DNA of 64,000 nucleotides. It comes from an uncultured Acidimicrobiales bacterium. Lineage in GTDB: Bacteria; Actinomycetota; Acidimicrobiia; Acidimicrobiales; JAHEJN01. The stretch covers positions 137,265 through 201,264 of the forward strand of contig CAWBCM010000013.1 of NCBI GenBank assembly GCA_963787285.1, read 5' to 3'. The position numbers and the translations under genes were made by a program. Under the pieces are notes generated by a model. The model did not search any database. It was not told the DNA's origin and was given only the letters and a program-made list of their open reading frames with translations. This document shows positions 3,226 through 55,271 of the stretch, piece after piece (the stretch's first letter is position 1; every line of letters starts with the position of its first letter).

Positions 3226-3226
3226 G

Positions 3227-3886: not shown

Positions 3887-3911
3887 CTCGGAAACGGTAG
3901 ACGACGGTCGG

Positions 3912-4784: not shown

Positions 4785-4828
4785 AGGGCGTAGGGTAACG
4801 ACAGGCGCGGACGGGAAGAGACGGACTC

Positions 4829-33633: not shown

Positions 33634-33762
33634 GTGGCGTTCCTCGTTCGGTGAACCTTGTCCGACCGAGTCTGGCCGACGGGCCGTCATCGAGGCGTCA
33701 TCGGGTCGGGTGGGCTCCGTTACGGGTTGATTGCAGTCGTGGAGAGATGCTTGGCACTGAGG

Positions 33763-33799
33763 GTTACCAGCAGGTAACTTGGTGTTACCAGTCGGTAAC
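33763..33799. promoter_or_regulatory. Tandem 16-bp palindromic operator-like sites upstream of the acyl-CoA dehydrogenase gene
   Basis: GTTACCAGCAGGTAAC (33763-33778) and GTTACCAGTCGGTAAC (33784-33799). Each has perfect 6-bp arms, the centres are 21 bp apart, and the sites end about 40 bp before the ATG at 33840. Confidence 0.5.
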
Positions 33800-33839
33800 C
33801 ACGTGGGCGGGCCGACGTATCAGACGAAGGGACAACGCA

Positions 33840-35059
33840 ATGGCCGAGTTCTCACCCGAGCTGAACGAAGATCAACTCCAGATCCAGAAGTGGGTCCATG
33901 AGTTCGCCGTGAACGAGGTCCGACCGGTGGCTCACGAGTGGGACGAGCGCGAGGAATTCCCGTACCCCGTGGTCGAGGAAGCGGCCAAGATCGGGCTCTA
34001 CGGCTGGGAGTTCATGGCCGAGGCCATGATGAACGACCCCACCGGGCTCACCCTGCCGGTGGCCATCGAGGAGCTGTTCTGGGGCGACGCCGGCATCGGC
34101 ATGGCCATCATGGGCTCGGGTCTGGCCGCCGCCGGTATCGCGGCATCGGGCACCAGCGAACAGGTCATGGAGTGGGTGCCGCAGTGCTACGGCGACGCCG
34201 ACAACGTCCAGCTCGGAGCCTTCGCCGCCTCCGAACCCGACGCCGGGTCCGATGTCGGTGGCTACCGCACCCGGCGCCAAGTACGACGAGGCCACCGACG
34301 AGTGGGTGCTCAACGGCACCAAGGCCTGGATCACCAACGGCGGTATCGCCGACATCCACGTCGTGGTCGGCGGTGGTCGACCCCGAGCTCGGCTCGAAGG
34401 GTCACGCCAGCTTCATCGTGCCGCCCGGACACGCCCGGGCCTCAGCATGGGCCAGAAGTACAAGAAGCACGGCATCCGGGCCAGCCACACCGCCGAGGTG
34501 GTGCTCGACGACGTCCGGATTCCCGGCCGCTGCCTGCTCGGCGGCAAGGAGAAGCTCGATGAGCGTCTGGCCCGGGTCCGTGAGGGCAAGCACGGCAACG
34601 CCCAGGCCGCCATGCAGACGTTCGAGGCCACCCGCCCCGCCGTCGGCGCCCAGGCGATCGGTGTGGCCCGTGCCGCCTACGAGTACTCGCTCGACTACGC
34701 CAAGGAACGGCACGCGTTCGGTCGGCCGATCATCAAGAACCAGGCGATCGCGTTCATGCTGGCCGACATGGCCACCGAGATCGAGGCCTCCCGACTGCTC
34801 ATCTGGCGGGCCGCCTGGCTCGGCAAGCAGAAGCAAGTTCGTGAACGCCGAGGGTTCGATGGCCAAGCTCAAGGCCGGCCGCACCGCCACCTGGGTCACC
34901 GAACGGGCCATCCAGATCCTGGGCGGCTACGGCTACACCCGTGAGTACCCGGTCGAGCGCTGGCACCGCGACGCCAAGATCCACGACATCTTCGAAGGCA
35001 CCGAGCAGATCCAGCAGCTGGTGATCAGCCGGGCCATCTCGGGGATGCGAATCGAGTAG
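33840..35059 (+). pseudogene. Acyl-CoA dehydrogenase, frame broken about 4 times; its last 26 codons are the island attachment repeat
   Basis: ACAD segments [23 protein letters not shown]..., [60 protein letters not shown] and [14 protein letters not shown]...[20 protein letters not shown] alternate between three plus-strand frames. The switches lie at about 34272, 34370, 34432 and 34834. Confidence 0.85.
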
Positions 35060-35060: not shown

Positions 35061-35150
35061 TTGACCTGCTGGTTTGTGGTCAGCGGTCACATCGGTGACC
35101 AAGGGTCACCAGCGGTCACCAGCTGTGGATAACTGATCCATCCCTACCCT

Positions 35151-35173
35151 CATCCCTACCCGGGGTAGGGATG
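35151..35173. repeat. 23-nt perfect palindrome overlapping the integrase start codon
   Basis: CATCCCTACCCGGGGTAGGGATG has 11-bp arms, and its terminal ATG is the int start. A half-site copy ATCCCTACCC lies just upstream (35143-35152). It belongs to the same stem family as 49606-49634 and 55299-55327. Confidence 0.6.
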
Positions 35174-36277
35174 AACGCGCTACGGTCGAGCCTCATGGCG
35201 ACCATCCGACAGCGGCGACCCGGGGTCTGGGAAGTGCGCGGCTACACGGGCAAGGACGTCGACGGGAAGTCGACCCAGGTGTCGCGGACCGTGTACGGCA
35301 CGAAGAAGGACGCCAAGGTGGTGGCCGCCGAGTTGACCGTGAAGCCGGCCCGCAACGCCGGCGGCCGCAAGCTGCGACAGCTGCTCGACGAGTGGATCGA
35401 CATCAAGACCCCCGGTTGGGCCGACCTCACGATTCGGGATCAGACGAGCCGGGCGAAGCAGGTCGCAGCCGACCCGATCGGCAACATGTCGGTCGCGTCG
35501 ATCGGCGTGTCCGACGTCGACCGTTGGGTCGCCCGTCTGCGAAAGGCCGGCGTGGGGGAGGGAGCGATCCGCAACCAGCACACCGTCTTGCGGTCAGCGC
35601 TACAGCAGGCGGTCCGGTGGGAGTGGATCGCCACGAACCCCGCCTCGAGCGCCCCGATCGAGAGCCCGAAGCGCCAGCAGCAGCGGACGCTCACCAAAGA
35701 CGAGGTGCGGGCCGTGATCGCCGCTGCCGCCGAGGTTCACGAGCTCGCCCCGCTGGCCTTCCGCCTCGGCGCCGAGATGGGTGCCCGTCGCAGCGAACTG
35801 GCTGCGCTCCGCTGGGACAAGTTCGTCGGCGACAAGGTGGTGGTCGATGGTCAGATCATCGTGTCGACCGATGCCGAGGGAGTTCGAGCGCCCAGGCTCA
35901 AGCCGACCAAGACCGGCAGCCGCCGAGTCGTGACCCTGAGCCCGGCGTTGCTGGCGATGGTCGAGGACGCTCGGGCGAAGTACGGCGACGTCACCACATG
36001 GCTGTTCACGCCAGATGCCGACCCACCCAACCCCGATCGCATCGGCTGGTGGTGGCGCCGCTCCCGAGAGCTGGCCGGCATTGATCCACGTTGGCGGCTG
36101 CACGACCTGCGGCACTGGTCGGCGACCGAGGCCATCGCCTCGGGACAGGACGTCCGCACGGTCGCCAACCGCCTCGGCCACGCCGATCCTGCGATGACGC
36201 TGAGGGTGTACGCACACGCTGTCGGCGCAGCAGACGAAGCGCTGGCCGGAATCCTCGGAGACGCACTCGGTGAATAG
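35171..36277 (+). CDS. int: Tyrosine-type site-specific recombinase (phage integrase family)
   Basis: 368 aa. It has an N-terminal SAM-like core-binding domain. The catalytic region carries R...HDLRHWSAT...LGHADPAMTLRVYAH (R, HxxR, H and Y residues). Confidence 0.9.
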   Translation: MNALRSSLMATIRQRRPGVWEVRGYTGKDVDGKSTQVSRTVYGTKKDAKVVAAELTVKPARNAGGRKLRQLLDEWIDIKTPGWADLTIRDQTSRAKQVAADPIGNMSVASIGVSDVDRWVARLRKAGVGEGAIRNQHTVLRSALQQAVRWEWIATNPASSAPIESPKRQQQRTLTKDEVRAVIAAAAEVHELAPLAFRLGAEMGARRSELAALRWDKFVGDKVVVDGQIIVSTDAEGVRAPRLKPTKTGSRRVVTLSPALLAMVEDARAKYGDVTTWLFTPDADPPNPDRIGWWWRRSRELAGIDPRWRLHDLRHWSATEAIASGQDVRTVANRLGHADPAMTLRVYAHAVGAADEALAGILGDALGE

Positions 36278-37481
36278 GTAGCGAGTATGCGGCGTGCGAC
36301 TTGGGCCGAAGCGCCACGCGTCGTAGCCGTTGTCGACCGGACTTATGAGCGCGCGTTTTGTGCGGGTCTGGCGCGGCGGACGGCGAGCAGAATGCCGGAT
36401 CAAGAGCGGGTATCTGGCGCCAGCGGCTTGTCGATATGCGTGGCCCTGACGGTCGCGGGAGGACCTGGCCGGTTCACTGCGGTAGCTTGCCTCGGTCGGG
36501 TTCGACGACGACGCTCTCAGGGGCCACCCCGAGCAACAACGATGCCAGGATCGGATCGACGCCACGAGGCGCGTAATCGCTGTTGCACGGCATCCGCTCT
36601 GATGACCAGCAGCGATGACCGGTCGGCCAGTGTCTAGATCGAGCGACGAGTCCCGAGTGAATGATCTGGGGCCTTCCCAGTCAGTTTGTGGCGGGCGGGC
36701 AACCAACCACTCGACGAAGAACGGGTTGACCGCAGCAGGGACCACCTCCTCATGCGGAAACTCGACGTCGAACCCGATGGCTTCGTAGCTCAAGGCAAAG
36801 CCCTCCGACAGTGATGCCTCTGTCGGAAAGGCCACGATGGTCCACAACGCCTGCGCTGAGATCATCACGATCGGCGCGGCTGGCGCCGGTGTCTGCAGCA
36901 CCGGTGTGAGACAGGCGTCGCGTTCCCAGACTGCGCTGACCTCGTACCACCTGACCTCGGGGATTGAGCGTTCGGCGAGGGCGTACGGGATGAAGCCGGG
37001 CTCAAGCGCCGTCGGATGAGTCACGAAATGGATGACCGAAGCGCCCCGGCCACCAGCCTCCCTCGGTGAATGGATGCTCGAGTTCTTCAGGCAGATGCCA
37101 CGCAGCGGGGACCGCTTTGAGCAGCCCGGGTTGCGCGGCATCGCTTCGGACGCGTGACCCTGCGGGGTGCTGACAACGACCCGTGGTCGTGAGCTGAGCC
37201 CCGGAATCTGAGCCAGATGGCTCACACAATGGGGCCCTCTCAGTCGTGTCAGCTGCTCTCGTTGGCGCTCGCTCGAGCCGGGCGCTGGCGTCGCAGGAGT
37301 CCCCCGTGTCACGGATCCCCTCTTGCTCCACGTCAGCCCGGGACCAGACAGCACTCGTCATGGGGACCTACGGCACTGCCCGGGCGCAGCGGTCCGTGTG
37401 AAGTTCGTAGTCGAGGGGCCATCGCCAGCCACATCATCCCGACGAAGCGACCAACCCCACCGCAAGAGACTGGAAGAAGCC

Positions 37482-38249
37482 ATGACCGGAGAATTCTTCA
37501 ACGACATTTCGCAGTACGAAGTCGAGAAGCAGGGCTACGTCTTCAAAGTGCCGTCCTTCTACTACGACAATCTTTCCATGAACGCTGTCTTCACAGCGTC
37601 CACGAACAAGGTGCGCAGCTACCTGCCACATCCGGACATGCACCCAGTGGAGATCTTCCCAGGCAGGTGCCTGTTGTCTTTCACCGCCTTCGAATACCGC
37701 AAGACCGATCTGGATCCATACAACGAGTTCAGCATCGGCGTGCTCATCGAATTCCAGAAGCGGTCCATCCCCTTCGCCGGTGCACTCAGAAAGATCCTTA
37801 AACGGGAATTCTCCCTCTACGTGTGGCACCTTCCGGTCACAACCGAGATCGCCCGGGTGGGAGGCGTGGAGTTCTTTGGCTATCCGAAGTTCATTGCCGA
37901 CATCGAGTTCACCCGCTCGGGAGACAAGCTGCGTTGTGACCTGTCCGAGAAGGGCTCCAGGATCCTGAGCATGGAAGGCAAGATGCTGCCCACCGAGCCC
38001 GGCAAGCGCCTGCGCTACATCACCTACTCGCTCAACGGCGGAGTCCCCCTGGTCACCAACATCTGCGTCAATCCCCTCCAGTTCGCCCAGAGCCGCGCCT
38101 CCGACGCTGTCAGTCTTGAGATCGACGGCGACCACCCCATCGCCAAGGAGCTTCAGGAAATCGACATCAGCGACACGCCCACTGCGTACCAGTACAGCCC
38201 GAACAACGAAGCCATTCTCTTCGCCGGCCGGAACCTGATGGACGCCTAG
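37482..38249 (+). CDS. Acetoacetate decarboxylase (ADC) family protein
   Basis: ATG at 37482. The PYNEFSIGVLIEF and ARVGGVEFFGYPKFIADIEF segments match the ADC-family core as I remember it. The gene looks lower in GC than its surroundings. Confidence 0.65.
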   Translation: MTGEFFNDISQYEVEKQGYVFKVPSFYYDNLSMNAVFTASTNKVRSYLPHPDMHPVEIFPGRCLLSFTAFEYRKTDLDPYNEFSIGVLIEFQKRSIPFAGALRKILKREFSLYVWHLPVTTEIARVGGVEFFGYPKFIADIEFTRSGDKLRCDLSEKGSRILSMEGKMLPTEPGKRLRYITYSLNGGVPLVTNICVNPLQFAQSRASDAVSLEIDGDHPIAKELQEIDISDTPTAYQYSPNNEAILFAGRNLMDA

Positions 38250-38871
38250 CTAGCGATCCCCCGGTCCGTGTGAATCGGAACCGGCAACCGGCAAGGGTAT
38301 CGACCGGCATCTTGGCTGTTGAGCGTGTGGGGCGAAGCGTTTCTCCCCGTTGTGTTCAACGAGGACTGGCGTTGCCCCGGGAGTGCGGACACGATTCGCT
38401 GAGCGATACGCGCCGCGCGACGACACCGCCGACTATCGCCAGACGCCTCAGTCTGCCGGCTCGGCGCTCGATATCGGCCAGCTCGTCTGAGGTGAATCGC
38501 GCATCGTGACGCCACCGAGGATGAAGTGTGACGTGACCGCTGAGCGCTTCGATCGAAGCGCTCGGCGCTGCGAGACAGCTTCGGCTGTTCTCTCCGAGCT
38601 GAAACAGATTGCTGAACGATATCGGTCGCCCTCAGCTCAGTTCACGACACGGAAGGACCGATCGGTTTGCCGGCTATGCGCTACTCGAGTCGGCGTGCGC
38701 CGTGAACATTCTGAGTGGTGCTGGTTGCTGGTTGCTGGTGATGTTCGTTCCGGTGTGGGTCAAGATGGCGTGGGTGGATGAGGAGGGCCATCGGTGCCTC
38801 ACGCGCTTGTGGCGGGCGCTGGGACGTTGGGCCCTGGAGCCTGGGCCCTTAGCGATGGCAGTCTCTTGTTG

Positions 38872-39390
38872 ATGGGACGGCCACAGACGAAAAGCGAGCT
38901 GGTTTGTGCGGCCAGTGAGGAATTCGACCGGCTCTGGGCGACGGCGGCGACGATTCGTGAAGAAGACGATGCGCGGCCGGGCGTTTGTGAGGTGTGGTCG
39001 TTGAAGGATGTGCTGGCTCATCTCGATGCGTGGCACGAGATGTTTCTGGAGTGGGAAGCCGCCGGGGCTCGAGGCGAGAAGCCAACGATGCCGGCGCCTG
39101 GTTTCTCGTGGGCGGAGACCCCGGCACTCAACGAGGTCATCTACCAGCGTCACAAGGCCGACGAGTGGGACGATGTCGTCAAGCATCTCCGTTACTCGCA
39201 CGCGAGGGTGTTGGAGCGGGTCGAGGCCTACAACGAGGACGACCTGTTCACCAAGAAGCTGTACGCCTGGACCGGGTCTACGTCGGTGGCGAGCTATGCG
39301 ATTTCGGCCACGTCGAGCCACTACAGCTGGGCCACGAAACTCATCAGGAAGGCGGCCAAGACCTTCGCCGCCTCCCGGATGGCGGGGTAG
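38872..39390 (+). CDS. ClbS/DfsB (DUF1706) family four-helix-bundle protein
   Basis: MGRPQTKSELV...FDRL..., VKDVLAHLDAWHEMFLEW, PAPGFSWAETPALNEVIY and a C-terminal ...SATSSHYSWATKLIRK align by eye along the whole length with E. coli ClbS. Confidence 0.75.
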   Translation: MGRPQTKSELVCAASEEFDRLWATAATIREEDDARPGVCEVWSLKDVLAHLDAWHEMFLEWEAAGARGEKPTMPAPGFSWAETPALNEVIYQRHKADEWDDVVKHLRYSHARVLERVEAYNEDDLFTKKLYAWTGSTSVASYAISATSSHYSWATKLIRKAAKTFAASRMAG

Positions 39391-39394
39391 ACCC

Positions 39395-40060
39395 GTGCGG
39401 GCTGCACCGTTCACCAGCTCCACGGATACTTCCGAGCAACCCATTGCCCGGTGGAACCGGGGCTGGGTGAAGGCGTGCGTGATCGGCGAGCTCATCGGTT
39501 TCCTTCCTCCAGCGGCAACCGGTGCCGCACTGGTCGTGCTGGGCGTTTCTGAGCTGGTGCTCGTTGCGGGGTTGGTGGCCGCTGGTGTGTTGGAGGGGCT
39601 CGTATTGGGGCGGGCGCAGGGCATCGTTCTTCGACAACTGATCCCAGGCGTCACCTGCTGGGCGGAAGCCACGGGAGTCGCTGCCGGGTTGGCGTGGCTG
39701 GCCGGGATGGGCGGCAGCTCGCTGGTGGGAGCGGTCGGGGCGAAGGGTCTCATCGTGGCGGTGCCGGGATGGATCATCGGCCTGCTCGCCATGGGCGTGC
39801 TCCAATCCTGGCGGCTGCGATCGGTCGTTCCCGACGCCAAACGGTGGATTCCGGCGACGACGCTCGCGTGGCTGATCGGCGTCACCATTCCTGTTGTTGC
39901 GCTGTCGGTTGTTCCGAATCAGTGGCCGCCTGCGGTTCACATCCTGGTCGCCATCCCCGCCGCGGTGGCGATGGGGGCCACGGTCGGTGCGATCACCGGC
40001 CGAACGCTCAACCGGTTCGTCGAACAGTCGCGATCTTTTTCACCGGGAGGCCAGCCGTGA
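39395..40060 (+). CDS. Hypothetical integral membrane protein (about 6 TM)
   Basis: The GTG at 39395 lies 5 nt after the ClbS-like stop. It has Gly/Ala/Leu-rich helices. Its stop overlaps the next start (GTGA at 40057-40060). The start choice is uncertain. Confidence 0.5.
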   Translation: MRAAPFTSSTDTSEQPIARWNRGWVKACVIGELIGFLPPAATGAALVVLGVSELVLVAGLVAAGVLEGLVLGRAQGIVLRQLIPGVTCWAEATGVAAGLAWLAGMGGSSLVGAVGAKGLIVAVPGWIIGLLAMGVLQSWRLRSVVPDAKRWIPATTLAWLIGVTIPVVALSVVPNQWPPAVHILVAIPAAVAMGATVGAITGRTLNRFVEQSRSFSPGGQP

Positions 40061-40665
40061 GTATCGATCTGAAGAAGACCTACGCCGACCACTACAGCGC
40101 CAGGGCGACTCCCACTGTGGTGGACGTGCCGTCGCGACCGTTCCTGATGATTGACGGGGCCGGTGATCCGAACACTTCAGTCGGGTACGTCGATGCGGTC
40201 GAAGCGTTGTATCCGATCGCCTACGGGCTGCGGGCCCAAGTCAAGGCGGCCACCGGTGACACCTATGTGGTGATGCCGCTCGAGGGTCTGTGGTGGGCCG
40301 AGGACATGAGCGAGTTCGATCCGACCGACAAGTCGAACTGGTTGTGGACGATGATGATCGGTCTGCCCGACGCGGTCACCGAAGCGATGGTTGACGAGAC
40401 GATCCCCGCCATCACTGCGAAGAAGAAGCTGCTCGCCGGCGAGCGGGTGCGGTTCGAGCACTTCGCCGAGGGCCACGCCGCCCAGGTCCTCCACATCGGC
40501 GCCTACGCCGAGGAGGCCCCAACCATCGCATCACTGCACGCCTTCATCGCCGAACAGGGCGGCGAGCTGACCGGCACCCACCATGAGATCTATCTCTCCG
40601 ATCCCCGCAAGGCCGCCACAGATAGGCTCCGCACGATCATTCGTCAGCCGTTCACCGATGCCTGA
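40057..40665 (+). CDS. GyrI-like small-molecule-binding domain protein
   Basis: FLMIDGAGDPNTS, VMPLEGLWWAEDM and HHEIYLSDPRK...LRTIIRQP are hallmark motifs of the stand-alone GyrI-like family. Confidence 0.75.
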   Translation: MSIDLKKTYADHYSARATPTVVDVPSRPFLMIDGAGDPNTSVGYVDAVEALYPIAYGLRAQVKAATGDTYVVMPLEGLWWAEDMSEFDPTDKSNWLWTMMIGLPDAVTEAMVDETIPAITAKKKLLAGERVRFEHFAEGHAAQVLHIGAYAEEAPTIASLHAFIAEQGGELTGTHHEIYLSDPRKAATDRLRTIIRQPFTDA

Positions 40666-41632
40666 CGAAACCGTCGAGGTCGTCTCGGAGCGAGTCCACG
40701 ACTGGCTGCTGGATGGCGATGCGGCGATTCGGTGGCAGACCAAACGCGATCTCCTCGACGCGCCGCCGAACGAGGTCGCAGCCGAACGAACGTTGGTCGC
40801 AACGACAGGATGGGGAGCGCAACTGCTCGAGCGTCAGGACCGGTCCGGCACTTGGGCCGACGGTCTCTACAGCCCGAAGTGGACCTCGACCACCTACACG
40901 CTGCTCCTGCTGCGACACTGCGGCCTGACGCCCGGGCATCCGGCTGCGTCGCGAGGAGTCGAGCTCATCTGGGACGGTGCGCGCTACTTCGACGGCGGCC
41001 TCACCCCGGCGAGGTCGATCGATGCCCCCGAAGCGTGCGTGACATCGATGTATCTGACATTGGCGAGCTATTTCGGATACGACGACGCTCGCGTCGACAC
41101 TGCCCTCGCCTGGCTTCTGGCGAACCAGTTGAGCGATGGCGGCTGGAACTGTCGAACCGTGCGCTTCGGCGACCGGCACAGCTCGTTCCACACGACCATC
41201 CTCGCCCTCGAGGCCCTCGCCGAATCGGCCCGGCACGAGCCCGAACGCGACGACATCGCACACGCCATGGCACGGGGGCATGAGTTCTTTCTCGACCATC
41301 GGCTCTACAAGTCACACCGCGATGGCTCCGTCGTGCATCCAGCGTTCGCCAAGCTGTCGTTCCCGCCACGGTGGCACTACGACGTGCTCCGCGGCCTCGA
41401 TCACTTCCAGGCCACCGACGCTCCTTGGGATTGTCGATGTCGGGACGCCGTGGACGTCGTCATCGAGCGCCGGCGCGCCGACGGGACCTGGCCTGTCCAG
41501 AACAAGCACGCTGGCAAGGTCTGGTTCGACATGGAAGAGACCGGTGGAGCGAGTCGGTGGAACACGCTCCGAGCGCTACGCGTCCAACGATGGGCCAGAA
41601 ACGCCGATCGGGTGGTCGAGCGAGCCCAATGA
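40658..41632 (+). CDS. Prenyltransferase/squalene-cyclase-like alpha/alpha-toroid repeat protein
   Basis: Repeated QW-like motifs (QDRSGTWAD, NQLSDGGWNC, RRADGTWP). It overlaps the GyrI-like gene by 8 nt and the downstream gene by 4 nt. Confidence 0.6.
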   Translation: MPDETVEVVSERVHDWLLDGDAAIRWQTKRDLLDAPPNEVAAERTLVATTGWGAQLLERQDRSGTWADGLYSPKWTSTTYTLLLLRHCGLTPGHPAASRGVELIWDGARYFDGGLTPARSIDAPEACVTSMYLTLASYFGYDDARVDTALAWLLANQLSDGGWNCRTVRFGDRHSSFHTTILALEALAESARHEPERDDIAHAMARGHEFFLDHRLYKSHRDGSVVHPAFAKLSFPPRWHYDVLRGLDHFQATDAPWDCRCRDAVDVVIERRRADGTWPVQNKHAGKVWFDMEETGGASRWNTLRALRVQRWARNADRVVERAQ

Positions 41633-42267
41633 GCGAAGCGCTGCCCTACATTGCGGCTCCTCGCAGCGGTTCGGGACCGCCAGTCATGATCATTCACTCA
41701 TGGTGGGGGCTCACGAGATCGTTCACCGACTACGCGGATCGGCTCGCCGACGCCGGATTCCTGGCTGGCTGCGCTGACCTCTTCGACGGCCGCACGGCGA
41801 CGACCCAACAAGAGGCAATGACCCTACGGCGCAGGAAACGGAACGAACCGATGTACCGGAGACTTCAACGAGGCATAGCGGAACTGACCACTCACGAAGC
41901 AGCGAGCATGGCCGAGTCCTCCGTTGTCGGCTTCTCCATGGGAGGTCACTGGGCGGTTTGGCTCGCACAGCATCCACCGCCGACGATCCGCGCCGCGGTG
42001 CTCTACTACTCCGCACGAGCCGGAGACCTCACAGGAGCCACCGCACCATTTCTGGCTCACTTCGCCGAGGCCGACGACTTCGTCACTTCATCTGCCCGCC
42101 ACAAAATGGAAGACGCCATCACGCAGCGCGGGCTGACCTACCGCAGCCATGAATACCCCGGGACCAACCACTGGTTCGGCGAAGTCGCTCACCCAGCCTA
42201 TGACCCGACCGCAGCTCAAGCCGCGTTCGATCGAACCGTGTCGTTCATCAACAGCAGCGCATGGTGA
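41629..42267 (+). CDS. Dienelactone hydrolase family alpha/beta hydrolase
   Basis: 212 aa. PVMIIHSWWGL and the nucleophile elbow GFSMGG. The C-terminus YPGTNHWF is typical of DLH-like proteins. Confidence 0.8.
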   Translation: MSEALPYIAAPRSGSGPPVMIIHSWWGLTRSFTDYADRLADAGFLAGCADLFDGRTATTQQEAMTLRRRKRNEPMYRRLQRGIAELTTHEAASMAESSVVGFSMGGHWAVWLAQHPPPTIRAAVLYYSARAGDLTGATAPFLAHFAEADDFVTSSARHKMEDAITQRGLTYRSHEYPGTNHWFGEVAHPAYDPTAAQAAFDRTVSFINSSAW

Positions 42268-42843
42268 TGGCCCTGCGTGAGCGCCCAATGGTCGAGCAGA
42301 TGGAACGACACGCACTGTGATCGCCCGGCACGAGAATGGAGGGTGCGCCAGGAATAGGGACGAAGCCCTGGCGAACGAGTCGCCACCGAAACCCAGCACG
42401 CCAACGGACCTATCTCGGCGACGACGTAGAAGGACTGGTTGCGCTGGAGGGTAGGACATCGCCATCCATCGGCTCGTCGGGTCGTCGACCCGAAGGTCTG
42501 TACCGCGATGGCGGGCTTGCCAAGTCTGGGCCAGGGGAGCAGCTGGGTTCCCGAGGCGTGTCGACAGCGGCGTCTGGCGAATCTGTTCGAGCGACGTCGA
42601 GTCTGTGTCATGGGCTGCGACGCGGTGAGCGCATGACCGACAGACGGGGGACTCTTGGCGTGACTATCGAGCGCCCGAGAGTCCCTTCGAGTGGATCGTC
42701 GACCGATCGAAGTGCCGGTTCTGCGCTAGCTGAGAGGCCTCCGCTCGGTGTTGATATGCGTGGCCGTGCGTGTCGACCTGCGGACCCCGTCGCTGTTCAA
42801 CCGATGTTGACGAGCTCGATGCCCGCTGGAAGAGTCTCTTGGT

Positions 42844-43419
42844 ATGTCGATCGAGGTTCGGCCGGCGACGGTCTTCGAAGACGTGAAGACCGTTCTCGGA
42901 CCCAAACGACCCGACGCAAACGTGTGTTGGTGTTTGAGCTATCGCCTCACGTCGTCGAAAGAGAACCGCGAGCTCCTGGGCCCAGCACGGGGCGAAAGAG
43001 TGCAACAGCTGGTGCAGCAAAGCCCTCCGCCTGGAGTGCTCGCCTATGACGAGGACGAAGTGGTCGGTTGGGCCGCCGTGCATGCCCGAGCGGAGACGAG
43101 CTTTGCCCGCAACAGGAAGATTCCACATGTCGACGACCTCGACGTCTGGTCGGTGTGGTGTATCCGGGTGCGGCCCGGCCACCGCAGGGAAGGCATTTCA
43201 CACCACTTGCTCGCCGGGGCGGTCGAGTTTGCTCGCGCGAACGGTGCGGTCGCGATCGAGGGTTATCCGCTCGACAACAGAGGAGCCAAGATCGACTCGA
43301 CCATGGCCTACGTCGGCACGATGGCTCTCTTCGAGAAGGCAGGTTTCGTGAAGGCCACCGACACCGATTCGATACTCAACGGCTTCCCACGCGTCCTCAT
43401 GCGACTCGACCTTCGCTGA
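42844..43419 (+). CDS. GNAT family N-acetyltransferase
   Basis: 191 aa. Acetyl-CoA motif A region IRVRPGHRREGISHHLLAGAVEFAR, then the C-terminus FEKAGF. Confidence 0.8.
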   Translation: MSIEVRPATVFEDVKTVLGPKRPDANVCWCLSYRLTSSKENRELLGPARGERVQQLVQQSPPPGVLAYDEDEVVGWAAVHARAETSFARNRKIPHVDDLDVWSVWCIRVRPGHRREGISHHLLAGAVEFARANGAVAIEGYPLDNRGAKIDSTMAYVGTMALFEKAGFVKATDTDSILNGFPRVLMRLDLR

Positions 43420-43458: not shown

Positions 43459-43995
43459 TCAGCTCGATACAAGTTCATCCATGGTGTTCAGCGAGGACGT
43501 GAGACCGGCGGCGGACTGTTCCATGAACGTCTCGGGGTCCTCGGGATGAGGCAGGTTGACCTGCATGGTCATCTTCGTGAATCCGTCACCGACGGGTTCG
43601 AACGTCAGTGTCTGGGCGGTCGGAGGGCCCGTCGGATCTACTTCGCCCATGACGAACCACTCGTCGGCATCGAGGCGATCTGGTCGGTCGACACCGGTGT
43701 AGGTGCCGTGCCAGGCCATCTGTCCGTGTTCGGGGATCACCATCTCGTAGTGGTAGCGGCCGCCCTCGACCGGGTCGGACTCGCACACGGTCAGCTCTGA
43801 GCCGGTCGGGGCGCCCGACGGGAACCAGACACGAAGGTCGGCAGGGTCGGTGAACGCTCGGAAGACGCGGTCGGGAGGCGCACCAAAAGTGCGGACACAT
43901 TGATAGGACAAGCAGTCGTCACTCAGCTCGAACTGAGCCGATCCGCGTCGGGCGTCGAGTGTCGCGAGGTCGGGTTGCAGGGTGGGGTCAGTCAT
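43459..43995 (-). CDS. SRPBCC (AHSA1/START-like) domain protein
   Basis: 178 aa. The pattern RVFRAFTDPADLRVWF...WHGTYTGVDRPDRL is typical of the AHSA1-like SRPBCC proteins that pair with ArsR regulators. Confidence 0.8.
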   Translation of the reverse strand: MTDPTLQPDLATLDARRGSAQFELSDDCLSYQCVRTFGAPPDRVFRAFTDPADLRVWFPSGAPTGSELTVCESDPVEGGRYHYEMVIPEHGQMAWHGTYTGVDRPDRLDADEWFVMGEVDPTGPPTAQTLTFEPVGDGFTKMTMQVNLPHPEDPETFMEQSAAGLTSSLNTMDELVSS

Positions 43996-44007
43996 GGGTA
44001 GGGCTCC

Positions 44008-44340
44008 TTAGGTGGGTGGGGATTCGGGATCGGTCGAGACGAGTTCGTCCAAGGTGTCGAAGCGGGCCTTCCACACGTCGTCGAAGGAGGCAAACCAGTC
44101 GTGGGCTGCCTGCAAACCGACGCCGTCGAGTCGGTAGTGGCGGTGTCGACCCTCAGCACGAACAGAAACGAGCATCGCGCTTGCAAGAACCTTCAGGTGC
44201 TTGGACACCTGCGGCTGGTTGAGCCCCGACGCACGCACGAGTTCGGACACCGTGGACTCATCCTGTTGGTGCAGCAACTCGAGAAGGCGTCGCCGGTTCG
44301 GTTCGCCCACCGCGTCGAGAACAACGTGTGCACCGATCAT
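44008..44340 (-). CDS. ArsR/SmtB family transcriptional regulator
   Basis: 110 aa. LDAVGEPNRRRLLELL...VSELV...LNQPQVSKHLKVL is the winged-HTH core. It lies 12 nt upstream of the SRPBCC gene. Confidence 0.85.
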   Translation of the reverse strand: MIGAHVVLDAVGEPNRRRLLELLHQQDESTVSELVRASGLNQPQVSKHLKVLASAMLVSVRAEGRHRHYRLDGVGLQAAHDWFASFDDVWKARFDTLDELVSTDPESPPT

Positions 44341-44653: not shown

Positions 44654-44887
44654 CTATCTGACTCGGCGCTCATCGATCCATCGCTCGATCTCGGCGGGGT
44701 CGAAGCGGATGAACTTCCCCACCTTGATGTAGGGGATGCGTTCCTCAGCGACCAGTCGACGTACGAAGCGCACGGTTACGCCGAGCCGGGCCGCCGTGCC
44801 GGCGACGTCGAATAGCGCGAGTACCTGGCGATCCCTCCGGGCGCCGTGCTGGTTCGTTCCCCGATTCGATTTGGCGACAACTTCCAT
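44654..44887 (-). CDS. xis: Excisionase-family (HTH_17/MerR-like) DNA-binding protein
   Basis: 77 aa from MEVVAKS. LFDVAGTAARLGVTVRFVRRLVAEERIPYIKVGKFIRFDPAEIERWI is the classic excisionase HTH pattern. The start is uncertain. Confidence 0.65.
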   Translation of the reverse strand: MEVVAKSNRGTNQHGARRDRQVLALFDVAGTAARLGVTVRFVRRLVAEERIPYIKVGKFIRFDPAEIERWIDERRVR

Positions 44888-45636
44888 GTCCACGGAAGGC
44901 GGGCCGAGAGCCTCGGACGCGACAAGGATCTTCGCTGCTTGCGCCGATCTCTCACGTCCGCGCGAGCACGGAACGACTGCACCAAATTGCGCCCGAATGA
45001 CCGGCACAGACTTGCTACTTCCGCAAAGGCGGACGTAGCGAGACCCCCCATGCCAGGCGCGCACAGCGCAACTGGCAAGTCTGTGCCACTCATTTCAGGG
45101 TGATCTGGTGCAGGGTCGGGTGTGGCGAAGGGGTGCTGGCGGGTTCGGTCGGGGTGGTCATGGCATCGAGGTCGGGTTCCGGAACCGGCGAGGGTAACTC
45201 GTTCGTGTGTGTCGCAGTGATCAGAGACCGGTGGGATGGTCTGTGGCCATGATGTGAGGTGTTTCGGGGTGTTCAGGTTGACGCCGGGGCTCTCAGCGCC
45301 GGCCCGAGTGCTGCGGTGGCCGCGTCTGGGTCCGGTCGTGTTGCTCCTTGTGGGGTCTGGGACTTGATGAGGGAAGGAGCCACATAGCGCCGGACGCGAC
45401 AGATCGTGTTGGTGCAGGTCTGCACCGGCGACTGCACCGACGGCGTCAACGGGGCCTTTCGGTCGCCCGTGGTGTCAGCCTGGGCTTCATTCTTACGTGC
45501 AGGATCCCATTCACACCGTTCGCCGTCTGACCAGCACTTATAGGACGCCACGCCACCCGCCGGACGAGCCGGCGGCAGCGTTAACTCTTCGGCTGACCCG
45601 CGACGCGCTGAGCGCAGCGCCAGCGGCTCGACCCGT

Positions 45637-46316: not shown

Positions 46317-49300
46317 TCACATCGTGCGGGTCGCTTGGGTGTCGATGTCATGGACCCGGGCGGTGCTGATCACTTGGGCTGCCAGGTCACGCACGGTCGC
46401 CACGTCCAGCAACGCGCCGTGCGTGGTCAGCCGCTCGAATTCCCGATGTCCGACCAGTGCGCTCGCCCGGGCTGAACGCTCCTTGCGGTGGTGTGCCCAG
46501 TCCGGTAGCCACAAGAATCCGTGGTGATCCCTGTGTTCCTCGCTCGCACCGTCCAGCACAACGGCGGAAACGGTGTCACCGGAGGCAGCAGCGAGCTCGG
46601 CGGTTGCGCCGAGCACCAGGGCGAGACTCCATGTGTCATTCCATCCGATCGAGATCTCGAGCGCCTCGCTCAGTGGCTCGGTCGCGTCCTTTGCCCGATT
46701 CATTGCCATGGAGCAGCGGCCGACGTCGCAGAGAGCTTGGGCGATGCTTTGGCCAAGGCCTCGTGCGGCGTCGAGTGCCCGGGTCGCGCATGCGTCAGCC
46801 TCGTCGATGTCGCCGAGGGCCAGAGCAATGCTCACCATGTCGCTGAGACCGTGGAGCGCCAGCGCGGGCCGGCCGAGTGCGGTCAGCGCGGCAGTTGACT
46901 CGCGGAGCAGTTGGCGCGCGCCCGAGAGGTCACCGCGTCGGTGGGCGAGCAAACCGCGACACTCGGTGGTCCAGGCCCGGATCTGAGGAAGATGGGTCCC
47001 GGTTGTGATCGCGTCGAGTTCGGGAAGCAGTCTGTCGGCCTCGGCGAACTCGCACAGTGTTACTGCCGCACGGACGTGGTCGATCAACAGCCTGGGGCGG
47101 GTGGGATCGTTCTTCGCGACGAGCTCCTCCAGCGCCCGAGCTGTCAACTGGAGAGCGCCTCGTTCGTCGCCGATCGCGTCGAGATAGGCCGATCTGGCCA
47201 CCACCGCGAGCGCCATGAGCTCGCGCGAGTTTGCTCTCTGCGCCTCGGCGGTCATCTGTTCGGCCAGTTCGAGCGCCCGCGGTGGATTTCCCGTGTAGGC
47301 ATGACGAATGGCCAGCGCTTGTTGAATCTCGGCTCGAGCCAGAGACGGAGCGGCGTCGCTCAGCTCGAGAATCGATGGGAACCATCTGAGAAACTCGTGG
47401 CCCTGGGCCGTGTTCAGCCAATGCAACCTCAGCGCTGCACCGAGGGCCAAGGCGAGGTCCGGAATGCGGGTTTCGACAGACCACTGGAGGGCCCGCTCGA
47501 AATTGGTGGCATCGGCGGCGAGCCGCTCCAATGTCGATCCGTGATCGGGTGAGTCGTATCCCGGCTCGGAAGGGCACAGGCTGGCGAAGTGCAGCGCATG
47601 GCGTCGACGGAGTGCATCGTCTTCGCCCGATGCGACGAGCAGCTCGCGAGCGTAGGCGCTCAATGAGACGAGCATTCCGTAGCGGCGCGGTCGCTCCCGG
47701 GTGACCGTGAGCAACGATGCGTCCAGGAGGTTGTCCATCAGATCTACGACGTCGGCTCGGCTGATCCCCTCACCCGAACAGACGCTTTCGGCCGCTTCCA
47801 TGTCGAATCCGCCGTCGAACACGGCCAGACGCCGGAACAACGTCTGGGCATCGACATCGAGAAGTTCGTAGCTCCACTCGATCGTCGCTCGAATCGTCGA
47901 GTGGCGCTCCGCGCCGCCGGCGACATTGGACGTGAGCACACCAAGTCGGTCGTCGAGACGGGCCAACAGCTCCACTGGTGACAGCAAGCGCAGCCGGGAT
48001 GCAGCCATTTCGATCGCGAGCGGCATCGCATCGAGGCGTCGACAAATCGATGCCACCACACGCGGTTCGACATCGTCGACCTCGAACCAAGGGTGAGTTT
48101 CGCGGGCCCGCTCGATGAACAATCGCACACAATCCGAATCCAGCAGTGCGGTCGGGTCGGCCGTTTCGATTTCGAGATCGAGACCAAGCGGTGGGATCGG
48201 CCAGACCTGTTCGCCCGGAACACGCAATGACCTTCGACTCGTGGCCAGAATCGTCAGTCCCGGGCCACTGGCCAGCAGACGGGAGACTATTTCGGCGACA
48301 GCCTCTGACAGGTGCTCGCAGTTGTCGACAATCAGCAGCGACCTGCACGACCCGAGCGCGGCTGCCACCTCTCCGAGCAGCGGGCGTGTCGGATGGGCCG
48401 GGACGTCGAACACTTCTGCAATCATTCGGATCACCCCGACGTCGTCGGCGGTGTCGGCCAACTCAACCGACCAGACACCATCGGGAAACTGATCGATCAG
48501 TCGGCGACCGACCTCCATGGCGAGGGATGTCTTGCCCATTCCCCCGAATCCGGTGACGGTGACCAACCGGTTCGTCGACAGATGAGCCATCACGCTCGCC
48601 AGTTCGGTCTCGCGGCCAACGAAGCTCGCAACCCGCTGGGGGAGATTGCTGGTCGGTCGCTCCGGGCCGGCTGGTACGACGACAGGCAACTCATGGCGAA
48701 GGATCTGCGTTTCGAGACGACGCAACGCATCGCCTGGTTCGATACCCAACTCCTCACCCAGCAGCGTTCGGGCCGAGCCGTACGCGCGTAGTGCCTCTGC
48801 CTGCTGATCACCGCGGTAAAGCGCCAACATCAGTTGGGCCCAGAACCGCTCGCGCAGAGGGAACTCAACCGTCAACTGCTGCAGCTCACCGACCAGGTCG
48901 CGGTGGCGACCGAGTTCGAGATCGGCATCGATGCGATCCTCGAGACAGACCAATCGGAGTTCCTCCAGCCGCGCGATCTCACCCTGCGCGAACTCCTCGT
49001 ACCGGAAATCCTCCAACGCCTCGCCGCGCCACAGCGCCAGTGCCTCAGCCAGGACGTTCCTCGCCCGAGCGTCCTGGCCCGACGCCAACATCTCCCGACC
49101 GTCGGACGCCAACCGCTCGAAAACCGTCGCATCGAGGTCTCCGGCCGACAGAGCAAGGCGGTAGCCCCGATCGGCTGTCTCGATCACCTCGGCCTGCCGC
49201 GCCCCGTCCACCGGCCGCAAAGATTTCCGGAGCTGAGAGACGTGGTACCGGAGTGTCTTGACTCCACCATCGGGTGGCTCTTCGCCCCAGAGCGCCTCGC

Positions 49301-49436
49301 TCAACTCCTCGACCGACACAACGCGGTTCGCGTTCACGATCAGCACACCAAGGATCAGCCGCGGTAGGCGGGCCGTGACGCGAACGTCGGCATCACCAAC
49401 GCGAGCAACCAGCGCCCCCAAGAGCCGAAACCTCAT
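46317..49436 (-). CDS. AfsR/SARP-family large regulator: OmpR-type winged helix + BTAD + NB-ARC/STAND P-loop ATPase + TPR-like C-terminus
   Basis: 1039 aa. MRFRLLG...YRL, BTAD (ALALWRGEALEDF...FWAQLMLALYRGDQQAEAL), P-loop GFGGMGKTS, and a long helical repeat tail. Confidence 0.85.
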   Translation of the reverse strand: MRFRLLGALVARVGDADVRVTARLPRLILGVLIVNANRVVSVEELSEALWGEEPPDGGVKTLRYHVSQLRKSLRPVDGARQAEVIETADRGYRLALSAGDLDATVFERLASDGREMLASGQDARARNVLAEALALWRGEALEDFRYEEFAQGEIARLEELRLVCLEDRIDADLELGRHRDLVGELQQLTVEFPLRERFWAQLMLALYRGDQQAEALRAYGSARTLLGEELGIEPGDALRRLETQILRHELPVVVPAGPERPTSNLPQRVASFVGRETELASVMAHLSTNRLVTVTGFGGMGKTSLAMEVGRRLIDQFPDGVWSVELADTADDVGVIRMIAEVFDVPAHPTRPLLGEVAAALGSCRSLLIVDNCEHLSEAVAEIVSRLLASGPGLTILATSRRSLRVPGEQVWPIPPLGLDLEIETADPTALLDSDCVRLFIERARETHPWFEVDDVEPRVVASICRRLDAMPLAIEMAASRLRLLSPVELLARLDDRLGVLTSNVAGGAERHSTIRATIEWSYELLDVDAQTLFRRLAVFDGGFDMEAAESVCSGEGISRADVVDLMDNLLDASLLTVTRERPRRYGMLVSLSAYARELLVASGEDDALRRRHALHFASLCPSEPGYDSPDHGSTLERLAADATNFERALQWSVETRIPDLALALGAALRLHWLNTAQGHEFLRWFPSILELSDAAPSLARAEIQQALAIRHAYTGNPPRALELAEQMTAEAQRANSRELMALAVVARSAYLDAIGDERGALQLTARALEELVAKNDPTRPRLLIDHVRAAVTLCEFAEADRLLPELDAITTGTHLPQIRAWTTECRGLLAHRRGDLSGARQLLRESTAALTALGRPALALHGLSDMVSIALALGDIDEADACATRALDAARGLGQSIAQALCDVGRCSMAMNRAKDATEPLSEALEISIGWNDTWSLALVLGATAELAAASGDTVSAVVLDGASEEHRDHHGFLWLPDWAHHRKERSARASALVGHREFERLTTHGALLDVATVRDLAAQVISTARVHDIDTQATRTM

Positions 49437-49605
49437 GGAGCATGCTAACCAAGGAGATCTTCGGGCTCTTCGACCGGACCCCTGACTTCAATGCCGGTTC
49501 GTCCGAAGCGAACGTCGAAGGCATGTGAGATTCGAGCACACCTTCGAGATGCTGCGCGCCGAGGGAGTGCGCTTCGTCCTCGCCGCCGCCAGTTGATGGC
49601 GGATC

Positions 49606-49760
49606 CATCCCTACTTTCTCGAAAAAGTAGGGATACCCAGCGGTAACCAGCGGACATCATCGGTAGACGTTTCACCAGCTCAGAGGACATCAACGGCCCT
49701 ACCGGCGCCCCGATCCCTAGTCCTTCACTACTTCTTGGTGGGCATCGGTCCTCGGTGACC
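49606..49760. repeat. Degenerate copy of the island right arm plus a core-like remnant
   Basis: 49606-49656 matches 55299-55349 at 46/51 positions, and all 5 differences fall inside the hairpin loop. A further 60-100 nt aligns at roughly three-quarters identity by eye. The stretch ends in CACTACTTCTTGGTGG, versus the core start CACGACATCTTCGAAGG. Confidence 0.5.
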
Positions 49761-49856: not shown

Positions 49857-50662
49857 TCAACGCCCTGACGCGGCCTGCTCGTACTTGCGCACTGCGAGCG
49901 GAGCGAACACGGCGATGATGATCACCACCCAGCCGAGCGAGTAGAGCGCGGCGTGCTCGAGCGGCCATGCCGTGGGCTCCGGCGTTCCCTCCGGGATGTT
50001 CCCGAAGTGCTCACGGGCCGCCTGGGCCACGGCTGACACCGGGTTCCACTCGGCGAAGACGCGTAGCGGGGTTGGGAAGTCGTCGGTCGGTACGAAGGTG
50101 TTGGCGATGAAGGTCAGCGGGAAGATCACCAGCGACGAGGCGTTGTTGATCGCTTCCACGCTGCCGACGCTCAGGCCGACGTAGGCCATGATCCACGAGA
50201 ACGCATACGCGAACAGCAACACCAGTCCGAAGCCCAGCAGCGCGTTGCCGATCCCGTTGCTGATGCGCCACCCCACTGCGTAGCCTGCGGCAACCATCAC
50301 GATGGTCGACAGCACGTTGTAGATGACGTCGCTTGCTGTTCGGCCGAACACGACGGCCGAGCGCGACATGGGCAGCGACCGGAACCGGTCGATGATGCCT
50401 TTCTGCATGTCGTCGGCCAGACCGAGGCCGGTGAACGTGGACCCGAAGGTGAGCATCATGACGAAGGCTCCGCCGATGAGGAACTCCCGGTAGGAGCCGC
50501 CCTCGATGTCGATTGCGCTCCCGAAGACATAGGCGAACAGCAGCACGAAGACGAGCGGCATGATCACCACGGCCACGAGGAGCTCGGGCATGCGCGTGAT
50601 CTTGATGATGTTGCGACGGGCGACGGTTGCGCCGTCGGTGAGAGCAAGGTTGATGCGTTCCA

Positions 50663-50666
<4 letters not shown>
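49857..50666 (-). CDS. ABC-2 type transporter permease (DrrB-like)
   Basis: 269 aa with 6 TM segments and the ABC-2 family pattern. It is 4-nt coupled to the upstream ATPase gene. Confidence 0.85.
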
Positions 50667-51695
<1,029 letters not shown>

Positions 51696-51821
51696 GCGTC
51701 GACCGTGCATCACCCCGGTCGAGGCTCGGCGGTCGCCGGGTAGGAGGGCGGTCGACGTGGCGGCCGACGGGCTCGACCGAGGCTCAACCGGCCCACAACC
51801 GACCGGTTCGAGGATCTCGGC

Positions 51822-54800: not shown

Positions 54801-55271
54801 GCCGATCGCTACTGGGAGGAGTTGACTGCCATCGAATTGCCCCCGAGGACCAACTCGCCCAACGAGACGCTGTCGGCCCGAGCGGCGTTTCGGCAGGGAC
54901 GCCGCCACGAGGCCTTCCGGATCCTTCGGAGCTACATCGACGAGCTGCTCGAGGTCGACAACATGGCCGGCACCGCAATCGTCGGCATCGAGTTCGTCAA
55001 CATGATGACCGCCGTCGGTCGCCTGATCGATGCCGGTGTGATTCTCGGGCACCTCGACGCAACCGGACTGCTCGGCGTCGAGGGCCCGGGATTCAAGGTG
55101 CTCGTCACCGACGCAGTCTTGGTCGTGGGCGCTGACCCGGACGCGGCAGCGGCCCGGGAGCGACGCAGCCGCCCGCCGGCTGGACGAGCGCTCCGCGCTG
55201 TCTTACATGGGGCGTGTCCTCGGCGAGCTTGTCGACGGTGCCGCTCGGCAATGACGAGGCCCGCCAAGTGA
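51822..55271 (+). CDS. SARP (wHTH + BTAD) - class III adenylate/guanylate cyclase domain - NB-ARC/STAND ATPase - TPR-like multidomain regulator
   Basis: 1149 aa. The more likely start is the GTG at 51879, with GGAGAG 9 nt upstream. Cyclase motifs are FGFSDIEGS, GGDSF, RIGLHTGE and GPAVNVAARI. The P-loop is GPGGIGKT. The tail is long and helical. Confidence 0.85.
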   Translation: MATVMGSLLLEDGERRGSAVQIRLLGGVDAVTDDGDPIDIGPAKCQALLAALALSAGSALPVSRLVELVWGQDPPRTAEKTLQSYVTRLRKGLGPDSIERTGAAYRLVVDPASVDVTRFQRHLAARDVGAALREWTGTPLAGLDAPGLTGTVDGLLEQWFGAVESDLALLVDRDPAEAVAVLTELTAQHPFREGLWALLMTALYRGGRQADALGAYRRAREHLIEELGVEPGPRLRELEALILGQDDRLDIAPASTTALMPPTGTVTFGFSDIEGSSRLWAAHRQDMASAVARHDDIVRAIAADHDGYVFATGGDSFGVAFHRAGDAAGWAADLQQAMARERWPGHIELRVRIGLHTGEAEERANDYFGPAVNVAARIAAAGHGGQTLVSPVTAALVDGRGLHDLGTFRFDGVGADLNIFQLGDGEHPPLRTDETRRGNLPRRTGRLFGRDRELDVVAQTIAASPIVTLVGPGGIGKTRLALAAARIAEVDLHDGAWLVELAEIASSADVARALADLLDVTESSGHTLTESIVAHLERRQTLVLFDNCEHVVEGVASLAQTMASGCPEVKVLATSREGLGVAEERLVVVGPLDAAGPAVELFDERARSADSSFDLDADRHEVEEICRRLDGVPLAIELAASRVRSLSPADLVARLDDRLRLLTGGRRRSVERHRTLRATIQWSYDLLTPPEQVLFRRLSSFAGSFDLAAAEAVAADDELPVEELSGLLGDLVGRSMVVVESGAYGRRFRLLETMRQFAAEHLSEAGASDRTAARHAGFVRDEVTRLGGLLVSNDEIEGAARLAELWPNVRAAVHWALAVEDRDLTTELLRPIALQMFVRRGLGEIADWTEGLLAITPPDDEETIATGLLWAAMHYSMTQDREHFRQLIEDSGAPDHLFVRYAYLVGVEDDDFTTLEVGPLVVAEMRRLGQESYARVFEVFTAAALMTSGQFAEARARHEALAELFRAEGPPSFLNWTLYLLGASAAFQGDHELADRYWEELTAIELPPRTNSPNETLSARAAFRQGRRHEAFRILRSYIDELLEVDNMAGTAIVGIEFVNMMTAVGRLIDAGVILGHLDATGLLGVEGPGFKVLVTDAVLVVGADPDAAAARERRSRPPAGRALRAVLHGACPRRACRRCRSAMTRPAK

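Follow-up and report, generated by a model that had tools for sequence, protein, structure and literature searches.

The 64,000-nt stretch of contig CAWBCM010000013.1 (GenBank:GCA_963787285.1, positions 137,265 to 201,264) analyzed here, referred to as the window, comes from an uncultured Acidimicrobiales bacterium and carries five tightly packed genes within bp 38872–42267 of its plus strand. These genes lie on a 4-kb block, for which our favored reading, held tentatively and at somewhat less than even confidence, is an accessory, recently horizontally moved operon that detoxifies DNA-alkylating or electrophilic aromatic natural products of neighboring microbes. The reading is centered on the third gene, encoding a GyrI-like protein predicted to be a cyclopropanoid hydrolase of the CCH subfamily, which is the only component with a chemistry that can be predicted from its residues. 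The block and its genes are as follows:

bp 38667–42719, plus strand: shared block of 4,053 bp, matching contig L081, in which the five genes are preceded by a putative promoter region and followed by about 450 bp on the 3′ side
bp 38872–39390, plus strand: DUF1706 (ClbS-DfsB) protein of a His-type clade, 172 amino acids (PF08020, E 2.5e-46, residues 1–163)
bp 39395–40060, plus strand: integral membrane protein, 221 amino acids, with no Pfam or NCBIfam family
bp 40057–40665, plus strand: stand-alone GyrI-like protein of the CCH subfamily, 202 amino acids (PF06445, E 2.5e-15)
bp 40658–41632, plus strand: predicted single-domain (alpha/alpha)6 toroid, 324 amino acids (sub-threshold SQHop_cyclase repeats, E 1.8e-4 and 5.7e-3)
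bp 41629–42267, plus strand: alpha/beta hydrolase of the dienelactone hydrolase (DLH) family, 212 amino acids (PF01738, E 1.7e-32)

The best-founded part of the finding is the identity of the GyrI-like protein, which matched Lin2189 (PDB 3b49) with an E-value of 7.7e-41 and 39.5% identity over 205 columns, the residue numbering of Lin2189 being fixed via the double mutant in PDB 5x5m. Lin2189 is a hydrolase of both yatakemycin (YTM) and CC-1065 and confers protection on E. coli (Yuan et al. 2017, PMC5684135). In CCHs, E157 and E185 constitute a buried acidic pair essential for catalysis, Y46, W85, W99, F154 and Y187 form a cage, with Y54 and Y58 engaging the substrate by stacking; members of the GyrI-like family without these residues are inactive, and the non-enzymatic binders SbmC and Rob are without the catalytic pair (PMC5684135). 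In the window protein, E157, E185, Y46, Y54, Y58, W85, W99 and Y187 were kept and F154 was replaced by Tyr. Because of the match to Lin2189 and the retention of all nine positions (F154 as Tyr), the protein can convincingly be assigned as a CCH by every residue named in the defining paper, which bears out the likeness to YtkR7 and C10R5 proposed in a preliminary description of this DNA. E157 and E185 were also Glu in the GyrI-like homologues of loci L004, L167, L116, L152 and L155, and the other seven positions were as in the window protein in all five, apart from conservative aromatic exchanges at two cage positions (Y46, which is Phe in L116 and L155, and W99, which is Tyr in L152). Similar to YtkR7, C10R5 and Lin2189, the window protein is a stand-alone GyrI-like protein of about 200 amino acids with the catalytic Glu pair and the aromatic cage, and like Lin2189 it resides in the genome of a non-producer. 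It differs from all three in being coupled to a toroid gene inside a five-gene mobile block, its activity being predicted from these residues.

Direct reading of the junctions revealed that the DUF1706 gene ends with TAG at bp 39388–39390 and that the membrane-protein gene can start at GTG 39395, leaving a gap of 4 nt, not the 5 nt given previously. The other junctions were as previously described: a GTGA at bp 40057–40060 between the membrane-protein and GyrI-like genes, an 8-nt overlap between the GyrI-like and toroid genes, in which ATG 40658 precedes the TGA at bp 40663–40665, and an ATGA at bp 41629–41632 between the toroid and DLH genes. The five genes are packed for co-translation. A promoter/terminator scan of bp 38200–42900 yielded neither a promoter-like site nor any informative hit on the plus strand, and neither a LexA box nor a RecA-NDp-type motif was seen upstream of the operon by eye. 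It was noticed that GCTGGTT(G) occurs in three tandem copies at bp 38720–38740, about 130 nt upstream of the DUF1706 start and within the shared block; these copies may be an operator.

Comparison of L081, a contig from another sample, with the window by blastn gave a single match, in which bp 6010–10062 of L081 correspond to bp 38667–42719 of the window over 4,053 bp with 99.78% identity. L081 was the only other contig found to have the complete five-gene order, and its flanks share no similarity with the window, carrying Glyoxalase_6, methyltransferase, MarR, Ble-like and AraC genes instead. Because an identity of 99.8% is retained despite unrelated flanks, the block must have moved recently, and it occurs in two unrelated genomic contexts, in agreement with the earlier proposal of a transferable cassette. 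The plasmid collection contained no DNA matching the block, and its protein matches to the toroid and to DUF1706 were stand-alone genes. A glyoxalase gene cut at the left block boundary was considered and rejected, since in L081 the Glyoxalase_6 domain already stops at residue 128 and does not reach the boundary.

Recurrence of the gene set was examined in two censuses. In that anchored on the toroid, covering 80 species-representative genomes, a GyrI gene was immediately upstream in one genome (L004) and a membrane-protein gene alongside in another (L006), and in none of the 80 was a DUF1706 or DLH gene next to the toroid; clustering of the toroid neighbors revealed no conserved neighbor, returning only alternative-frame toroid open reading frames (ORFs) and one ABC ATPase (4 loci). 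In the census anchored on the His-type DUF1706 clade, covering 80 metagenome loci with about 176 kb of flank, eight loci had a toroid-family gene next to DUF1706 and one more had it at a distance of 1.8 kb, and a CCH gene was adjacent in four; by chance, 0.06–0.3 such neighbors would be expected, assuming 1–5 copies of each family per 3-Mb genome. Two of these loci, L116 (GC 0.50) and L155 (GC 0.53), have all three families in the arrangement toroid-DUF1706-(GNAT)-CCH, an order unlike that of the window, and in L152 (GC 0.45) and L156 (GC 0.38) DUF1706 lies beside CCH. Thus the complete five-gene order is not conserved, being shared with L081 only, and what recurs of the combination described earlier is that genes for His-type DUF1706, CCH and the toroid lie adjacent, with an order that varies; counted conservatively, this applies to at least three distant lineages (GC 0.38–0.67).

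Three close relatives carry partial versions of the cluster: in L167, a DUF1706 remnant of 30 codons precedes a GyrI-toroid pair that overlaps by 8 nt as in the window; a GyrI-toroid pair overlapping in this way is also present in L004; and in L168, DUF1706 (80% identity) is accompanied by a frame-disrupted membrane-protein gene and a fragment of GyrI. Long-read indel errors may account for some of these disruptions, since the window itself has split housekeeping genes. Transfer of the block, the partial versions in relatives and the distant recurrence argue for a real functional core. The same data bear on a different explanation, namely that the operon is a mosaic of unrelated stress or xenobiotic genes stitched together by recombination, its tight spacing reflecting genome compaction and not a common substrate. 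A mosaic would fit genes that occur alone (the toroid in L082 and L166, DUF1706 in most loci, the membrane protein in L163–165), a cluster that is decaying or incomplete in relatives, and two contexts that are both rich in resistance-type genes (MarR, GNAT, ArsR-AHSA1, Ble-like and glyoxalase). However, the pairwise and three-way adjacency of the three families over a GC range of 0.38–0.67 is far above the chance estimate, and the 8-nt overlap of GyrI-like and toroid genes is kept in three contexts; a mosaic is considered somewhat unlikely.

The profile searches placed the first, third and fifth genes in the DUF1706, GyrI-like and DLH families, respectively, as had been predicted. For the DUF1706 gene, ATG 38872 is favored over GTG 38794 as the start codon because the homologues are 165–172 amino acids long and begin with MxRPTTK. 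The window protein matched 5cof (E 8e-10) and ClbS (6anr, E 2e-8) in PDB, and a profile of its clade gave E 1e-23 and 2e-21, respectively. In an alignment of the window protein, 120 homologues, ClbS and 5cof, the column of ClbS Tyr55 was His (His50 in the window protein) in 121 of 121 clade members and Tyr in ClbS and 5cof, and a second invariant His (His150) stood where ClbS has Pro (SSHY vs ASPY). All seven solved DUF1706 structures, including ClbS, 5cof, IRC4, DfsB and 4n6c, keep Tyr at the Tyr55 position. Tyr55 is the active-site residue of ClbS, the cyclopropane hydrolase of colibactin self-resistance (Tripathi 2017), and the Y55F variant neither hydrolyses nor protects (later preprint from the ClbS groups). 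DUF1706 homologues as distant as about 27% identity protect against colibactin (Silpe 2022, PMC8907063); the most distant protective one, from Bifidobacterium longum (26.8% identity), was Tyr-type (YQVGW), as read by machine from an error-prone gBlock sequence in the supplement. The window protein is therefore a member of the family and can be aligned with the ClbS structure over its full length, but by its sequence it is not of the ClbS functional type at the key residue.

These observations do not favor the original idea that two unrelated folds share the same detoxifying chemistry. In that strict form, DUF1706 and the GyrI-like protein would both be cyclopropane hydrolases and, with the other three proteins, provide a layered defense against alkylators with a cyclopropane warhead, colibactin-like ones included. 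Both families do have a characterized cyclopropane-hydrolysing member, the two genes are adjacent in at least three lineages, and the protection conferred by homologues down to 27% identity points in the same direction. Yet the Tyr55 needed for ClbS activity is His in the window clade, all protective or solved DUF1706 relatives inspected carry Tyr, and the scores of the clade on metal-binding DinB/MDMPI models hint at another chemistry, so that this model is judged decidedly improbable.

The window protein scored more weakly on the MDMPI_N and DinB_2 models and also on TIGR03083 and the 'metal-binding' TIGR03086 model, and in this respect resembles DinB/YfiT-like enzymes (mycothiol or bacillithiol S-transferases and MDMPI); it differs from them in that its best family is DUF1706, not DinB_2 or DUF664, and an HxxxH metal triad is not evident. 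As with the ClbS-like proteins that protect non-producers (PMC8907063), its gene is an orphan that does not belong to a pks island. The His-type clade is broad and, unlike ClbS, includes chromosomal genes of Listeria monocytogenes and several Enterococcus species, along with one Bacteroidota member; no experiment on any of its members was found in the literature, and a 2026 preprint terms the wider DUF1706 pool functionally uncharacterised. Regulators of the WYL/YafY type adjoin clade members in five loci and in L. monocytogenes, an AraC-GyrI regulator precedes the DUF1706 gene in L156, and VOC/glyoxalase genes (bleomycin-resistance superfamily) adjoin it in L081 and Listeria. WYL regulators of DinB-superfamily genes are DNA-damage sensors that answer genotoxic stress in mycobacteria (PMC10693628), and the mycobacterial SiwR targets resemble the clade members in these WYL/YafY and glyoxalase-like neighborhoods. 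The regulator and VOC neighbors fit a response to DNA damage or toxins without identifying the substrate. In the Listeria locus (L172, L. monocytogenes, GenBank:NZ_LR134400.1, bp 2170–4946), genes for YafY (WYL), a small effector-binding-domain protein, YxeA, the His-type DUF1706 protein and a VOC-family protein are found together; belonging to a cultured pathogen, this locus is a tractable place for addressing the function of the clade.

The toroid had been described as prenyltransferase/cyclase-like. The modeled fold is in keeping with this, but its Pfam and NCBIfam matches were under the curated cut-offs and no DxDD (or VxDCTAE) general-acid motif was found in its sequence, the comparable place being IDAPEAC with an invariant Cys127. 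The AlphaFold model is an alpha/alpha barrel (pLDDT 76), for which Foldseek gave squalene-hopene cyclase, drimenyl-PP synthase, MstE and the 'prenylcyclase' 6ij1 as the nearest structures with TM-scores of only 0.44–0.52, GH76 being close behind; judging from this model, the protein is only a fold-level relative of terpene cyclases. The predicted (alpha/alpha)6 barrel of about 320–350 amino acids with DGGW-type repeats would be in common with MstE, 6ij1 and the Cystobacter SHC-like 8pak; from class II terpene cyclases and prenylcyclases the toroid differs in having conserved Cys127, Cys165, His174 and His178 instead of DxDD. Cys127, Trp66, Pro236, Trp239, Asp258 and Arg260 were invariant in 89 of 89 toroid sequences, a distant sister subfamily included, and Asp242 was present in 83 of them; Cys165, His174 and His178 were conserved within the subfamily of the window only. 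At least 8000 homologues (37–85% identity) occur in Acidimicrobiia, Chloroflexota, Acidobacteriota, Planctomycetota, Bacteroidota and others, all of them unnamed or called 'squalene cyclase' in RefSeq. A second subfamily, about 20% identical to that of the window, is the usual partner of His-type DUF1706 (L087, bp 2321–3331, and five similar loci; L116, bp 3525–4478); the gaps to DUF1706 are 3–11 nt, and the invariant Cys and the W/P/W/D/D/R residues are common to both subfamilies.

The DLH protein resembles the ClcD family in its full-length PF01738 match and in the aligned Asp (AEADDF) and His (TNHWF) of the triad, as judged by alignment with 4zv9 and 9bld; it differs in having Ser (GFSMGG) as nucleophile for the classical Cys and in that no chlorocatechol pathway genes lie nearby. 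The membrane protein was modeled by AlphaFold with five long helices (pLDDT 92.5) and has two invariant intramembrane residues, Glu32 and Glu67; Foldseek found no fold match in PDB (best TM-score 0.35). Its 78 homologues are all unnamed and all from Actinomycetota. A genotoxin role had been extended to these two proteins as well, but nothing was found that links either to genotoxins. The toroid and the DLH protein could also be taken as parts of a module that breaks down or tailors a terpenoid, meroterpenoid or aromatic lactone, in which the toroid would be a cyclase-like enzyme and DLH would serve as lactonase or esterase, while ligand binding would fall to the GyrI-like and DUF1706 proteins. 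The nearest folds of the toroid, class II terpene cyclases and 'prenylcyclase', and the classical role of the DLH family in lactone hydrolysis are in keeping with such a module. It is nevertheless highly improbable, in view of the missing DxDD motif in the toroid, the absence of a prenyl-diphosphate synthase or other pathway genes from the window, and the CCH catalytic pair in the GyrI-like protein, which non-enzymatic binders such as SbmC and Rob do not have.

In the favored reading of a detoxification operon, CCH would use a Glu-mediated attack to open the cyclopropane ring in compounds of the yatakemycin/CC-1065/duocarmycin type. For the His-type DUF1706 protein and the Cys-bearing toroid, the probable targets are compounds of this class or the products formed from them, on which they might act by hydrolysis, thiol addition or sequestration, with His50 in place of ClbS Tyr55. 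The Ser-type DLH may take off an ester or lactone group, and the membrane protein with its two buried Glu residues may export or import the substrate or product.

Several observations weigh against this reading. The toroid gene is usually found by itself, its surroundings in 78 of the 80 genomes containing none of the other four; homologues of the membrane protein (50–68% identity) sit in unrelated contexts; and in a single phmmer pass over about 170 loci, DLH was not found beside relatives of the other genes, being unique to this block. The six loci pairing DUF1706 with the second toroid subfamily are similar in GC (0.60–0.63) and may be one lineage, and the motifs of the metagenome scan were His-type only, so that Tyr-type DUF1706 proteins lie outside the reach of the census. 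The whole His-type clade is without the catalytic Tyr of ClbS, and a DNA glycosylase or nuclease of the kind involved in yatakemycin self-resistance is not present. Moreover, the CCHs of non-producers are seen as broadly distributed xenobiotic-handling proteins (PMC5684135).

A bolder version, which we put forward as unlikely, is that His-type DUF1706, CCH and the Cys-bearing toroid constitute a conserved three-component system neutralising genotoxic natural products. In such a system, the toroid would be a new enzyme or binder for the toxin or its ring-opened product, DUF1706 would have a chemistry distinct from that of ClbS, the membrane protein of new fold and the esterase would have been added in this lineage, and the whole would form a 4-kb cassette recombining at short TGCCGG-bearing repeats.

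The operon is a new combination of known kinds: no paper was found in the literature in which DUF1706 and GyrI-like proteins are treated together as one unit, in line with the preliminary description, which knew of no earlier account of the combination. Enzymatic defenses of non-producers are known separately for ClbS-like proteins (PMC8907063) and for CCHs (PMC5684135), and the favored reading, if true, would extend transferable defense of this type against DNA-alkylating natural products to a combined mobile unit. Provided that the association has a function, it would give a first testable role to the DUF1706 clade of L. monocytogenes, Enterococcus and soil actinobacteria, and a first role to an uncharacterised toroid family with thousands of members in many phyla, which would then be currently mislabelled as 'squalene cyclase'. 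Since the whole clade is without the catalytic Tyr, annotation as 'ClbS family' should not imply colibactin resistance.

The operon had been placed on a mobile island, and this was supported by an integrase, an HTH_17 gene, a drop in GC content and a hairpin-bearing repeat. GC content is 0.61–0.65 across 37–50 kb, compared with 0.67–0.72 outside. The features of the island and of the block ends are listed below:

bp 35171–36277, plus strand: tyrosine integrase (PF00589, E 2e-19; Phage_int_M), at the start of the low-GC stretch
bp 44654–45064, minus strand: HTH_17 (excisionase-type) gene inside the low-GC stretch
bp 35125–35170, no strand assigned: candidate left att site with hairpin, GATCCATCCCTAC ... 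GTAGGGAT, repeated at bp 49592–49640
bp 49592–49640, no strand assigned: candidate right att site, giving an island of about 14.5 kb and coinciding with the step in GC content
bp 38668–38683, plus strand: left block-boundary repeat, TGCCGGCTATGCGCTA; identity to L081 begins at TTGCCGG
bp 42713–42728, plus strand: right block-boundary repeat, TGCCGGTTCTGCGCTA; identity to L081 ends inside it

An exact core of 13 nt and a common hairpin make up the candidate att repeat, and a core of this length is expected about 2–3 times by chance in 18 kb; the assignment of bp 35125–35170 and bp 49592–49640 as att sites is plausible from the sequence but tentative. By direct reading, the two copies of the boundary repeat agree at 17 of 22 positions. 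In addition, an imperfect two-box direct repeat (GAAxTGCCGG ... TGTYGATATGCGTGGCC) was located at bp 36391–36455 and bp 42711–42775, one copy lying about 115 nt downstream of the integrase gene and the other abutting the right block end, such that they bracket an acetoacetate-decarboxylase (ADC)-like gene and the operon. The starting and stopping of L081 identity at TGCCGG, together with the two-box repeats, suggests recombination at short repeats, with modest statistics for a pattern derived from the sites themselves. The DNA around the island is of a housekeeping nature (ribonucleotide reductase, methylmalonyl-CoA mutase, amidase, MscS and tRNA synthetase). As noted earlier, no biosynthetic cluster is in view: polyketide synthase, nonribosomal peptide synthetase and other biosynthetic genes were not found in the 64-kb window, where the scan covered 20 large ORFs besides those of the operon and the genes next to it.

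Other features were noticed in the island and near it. The ADC-like gene (bp 37485–38249), situated between the integrase and the operon in the part with the lowest GC (0.61), encodes an acetoacetate-decarboxylase-family protein (PF06314, E 9e-20). On the minus strand at bp 43459–44340 are genes for an ArsR/SmtB-family regulator and then an AHSA1/SRPBCC protein, and an AHSA1 gene also follows the decayed cluster of L168 (bp 7423–7908). An inverted repeat of 48 nt (75% complementary, 41-nt spacer) at bp 44977–45113 overlaps the start of the HTH_17 gene. A large SARP-type regulator with BTAD, Trans_reg_C and AAA domains is encoded at bp 46317–49436 (minus strand), and a second large one at bp 51822–55271 (plus strand) has in addition a guanylate-cyclase domain and NB-ARC; near neither of them were biosynthetic genes found that they could control.

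Two split genes lie next to the island. The acyl-CoA dehydrogenase gene beside the integrase (bp 33651–35059) is split over three frames, with the N-terminal domain in bp 33651–34562, the middle and C-terminal parts in bp 34252–34944 and the last part in bp 33938–35059, and is either a pseudogene or the product of long-read indel errors. At bp 50663–52970 (minus strand), a DrrA-like ABC ATPase is split over two frames, the DrrA C-terminal part in bp 50663–51232 and ABC_tran in the ORF at bp 50961–52970; together with an ABC-2 permease (bp 49857–50666), it makes up a daunorubicin-resistance-type exporter pair just outside the island.

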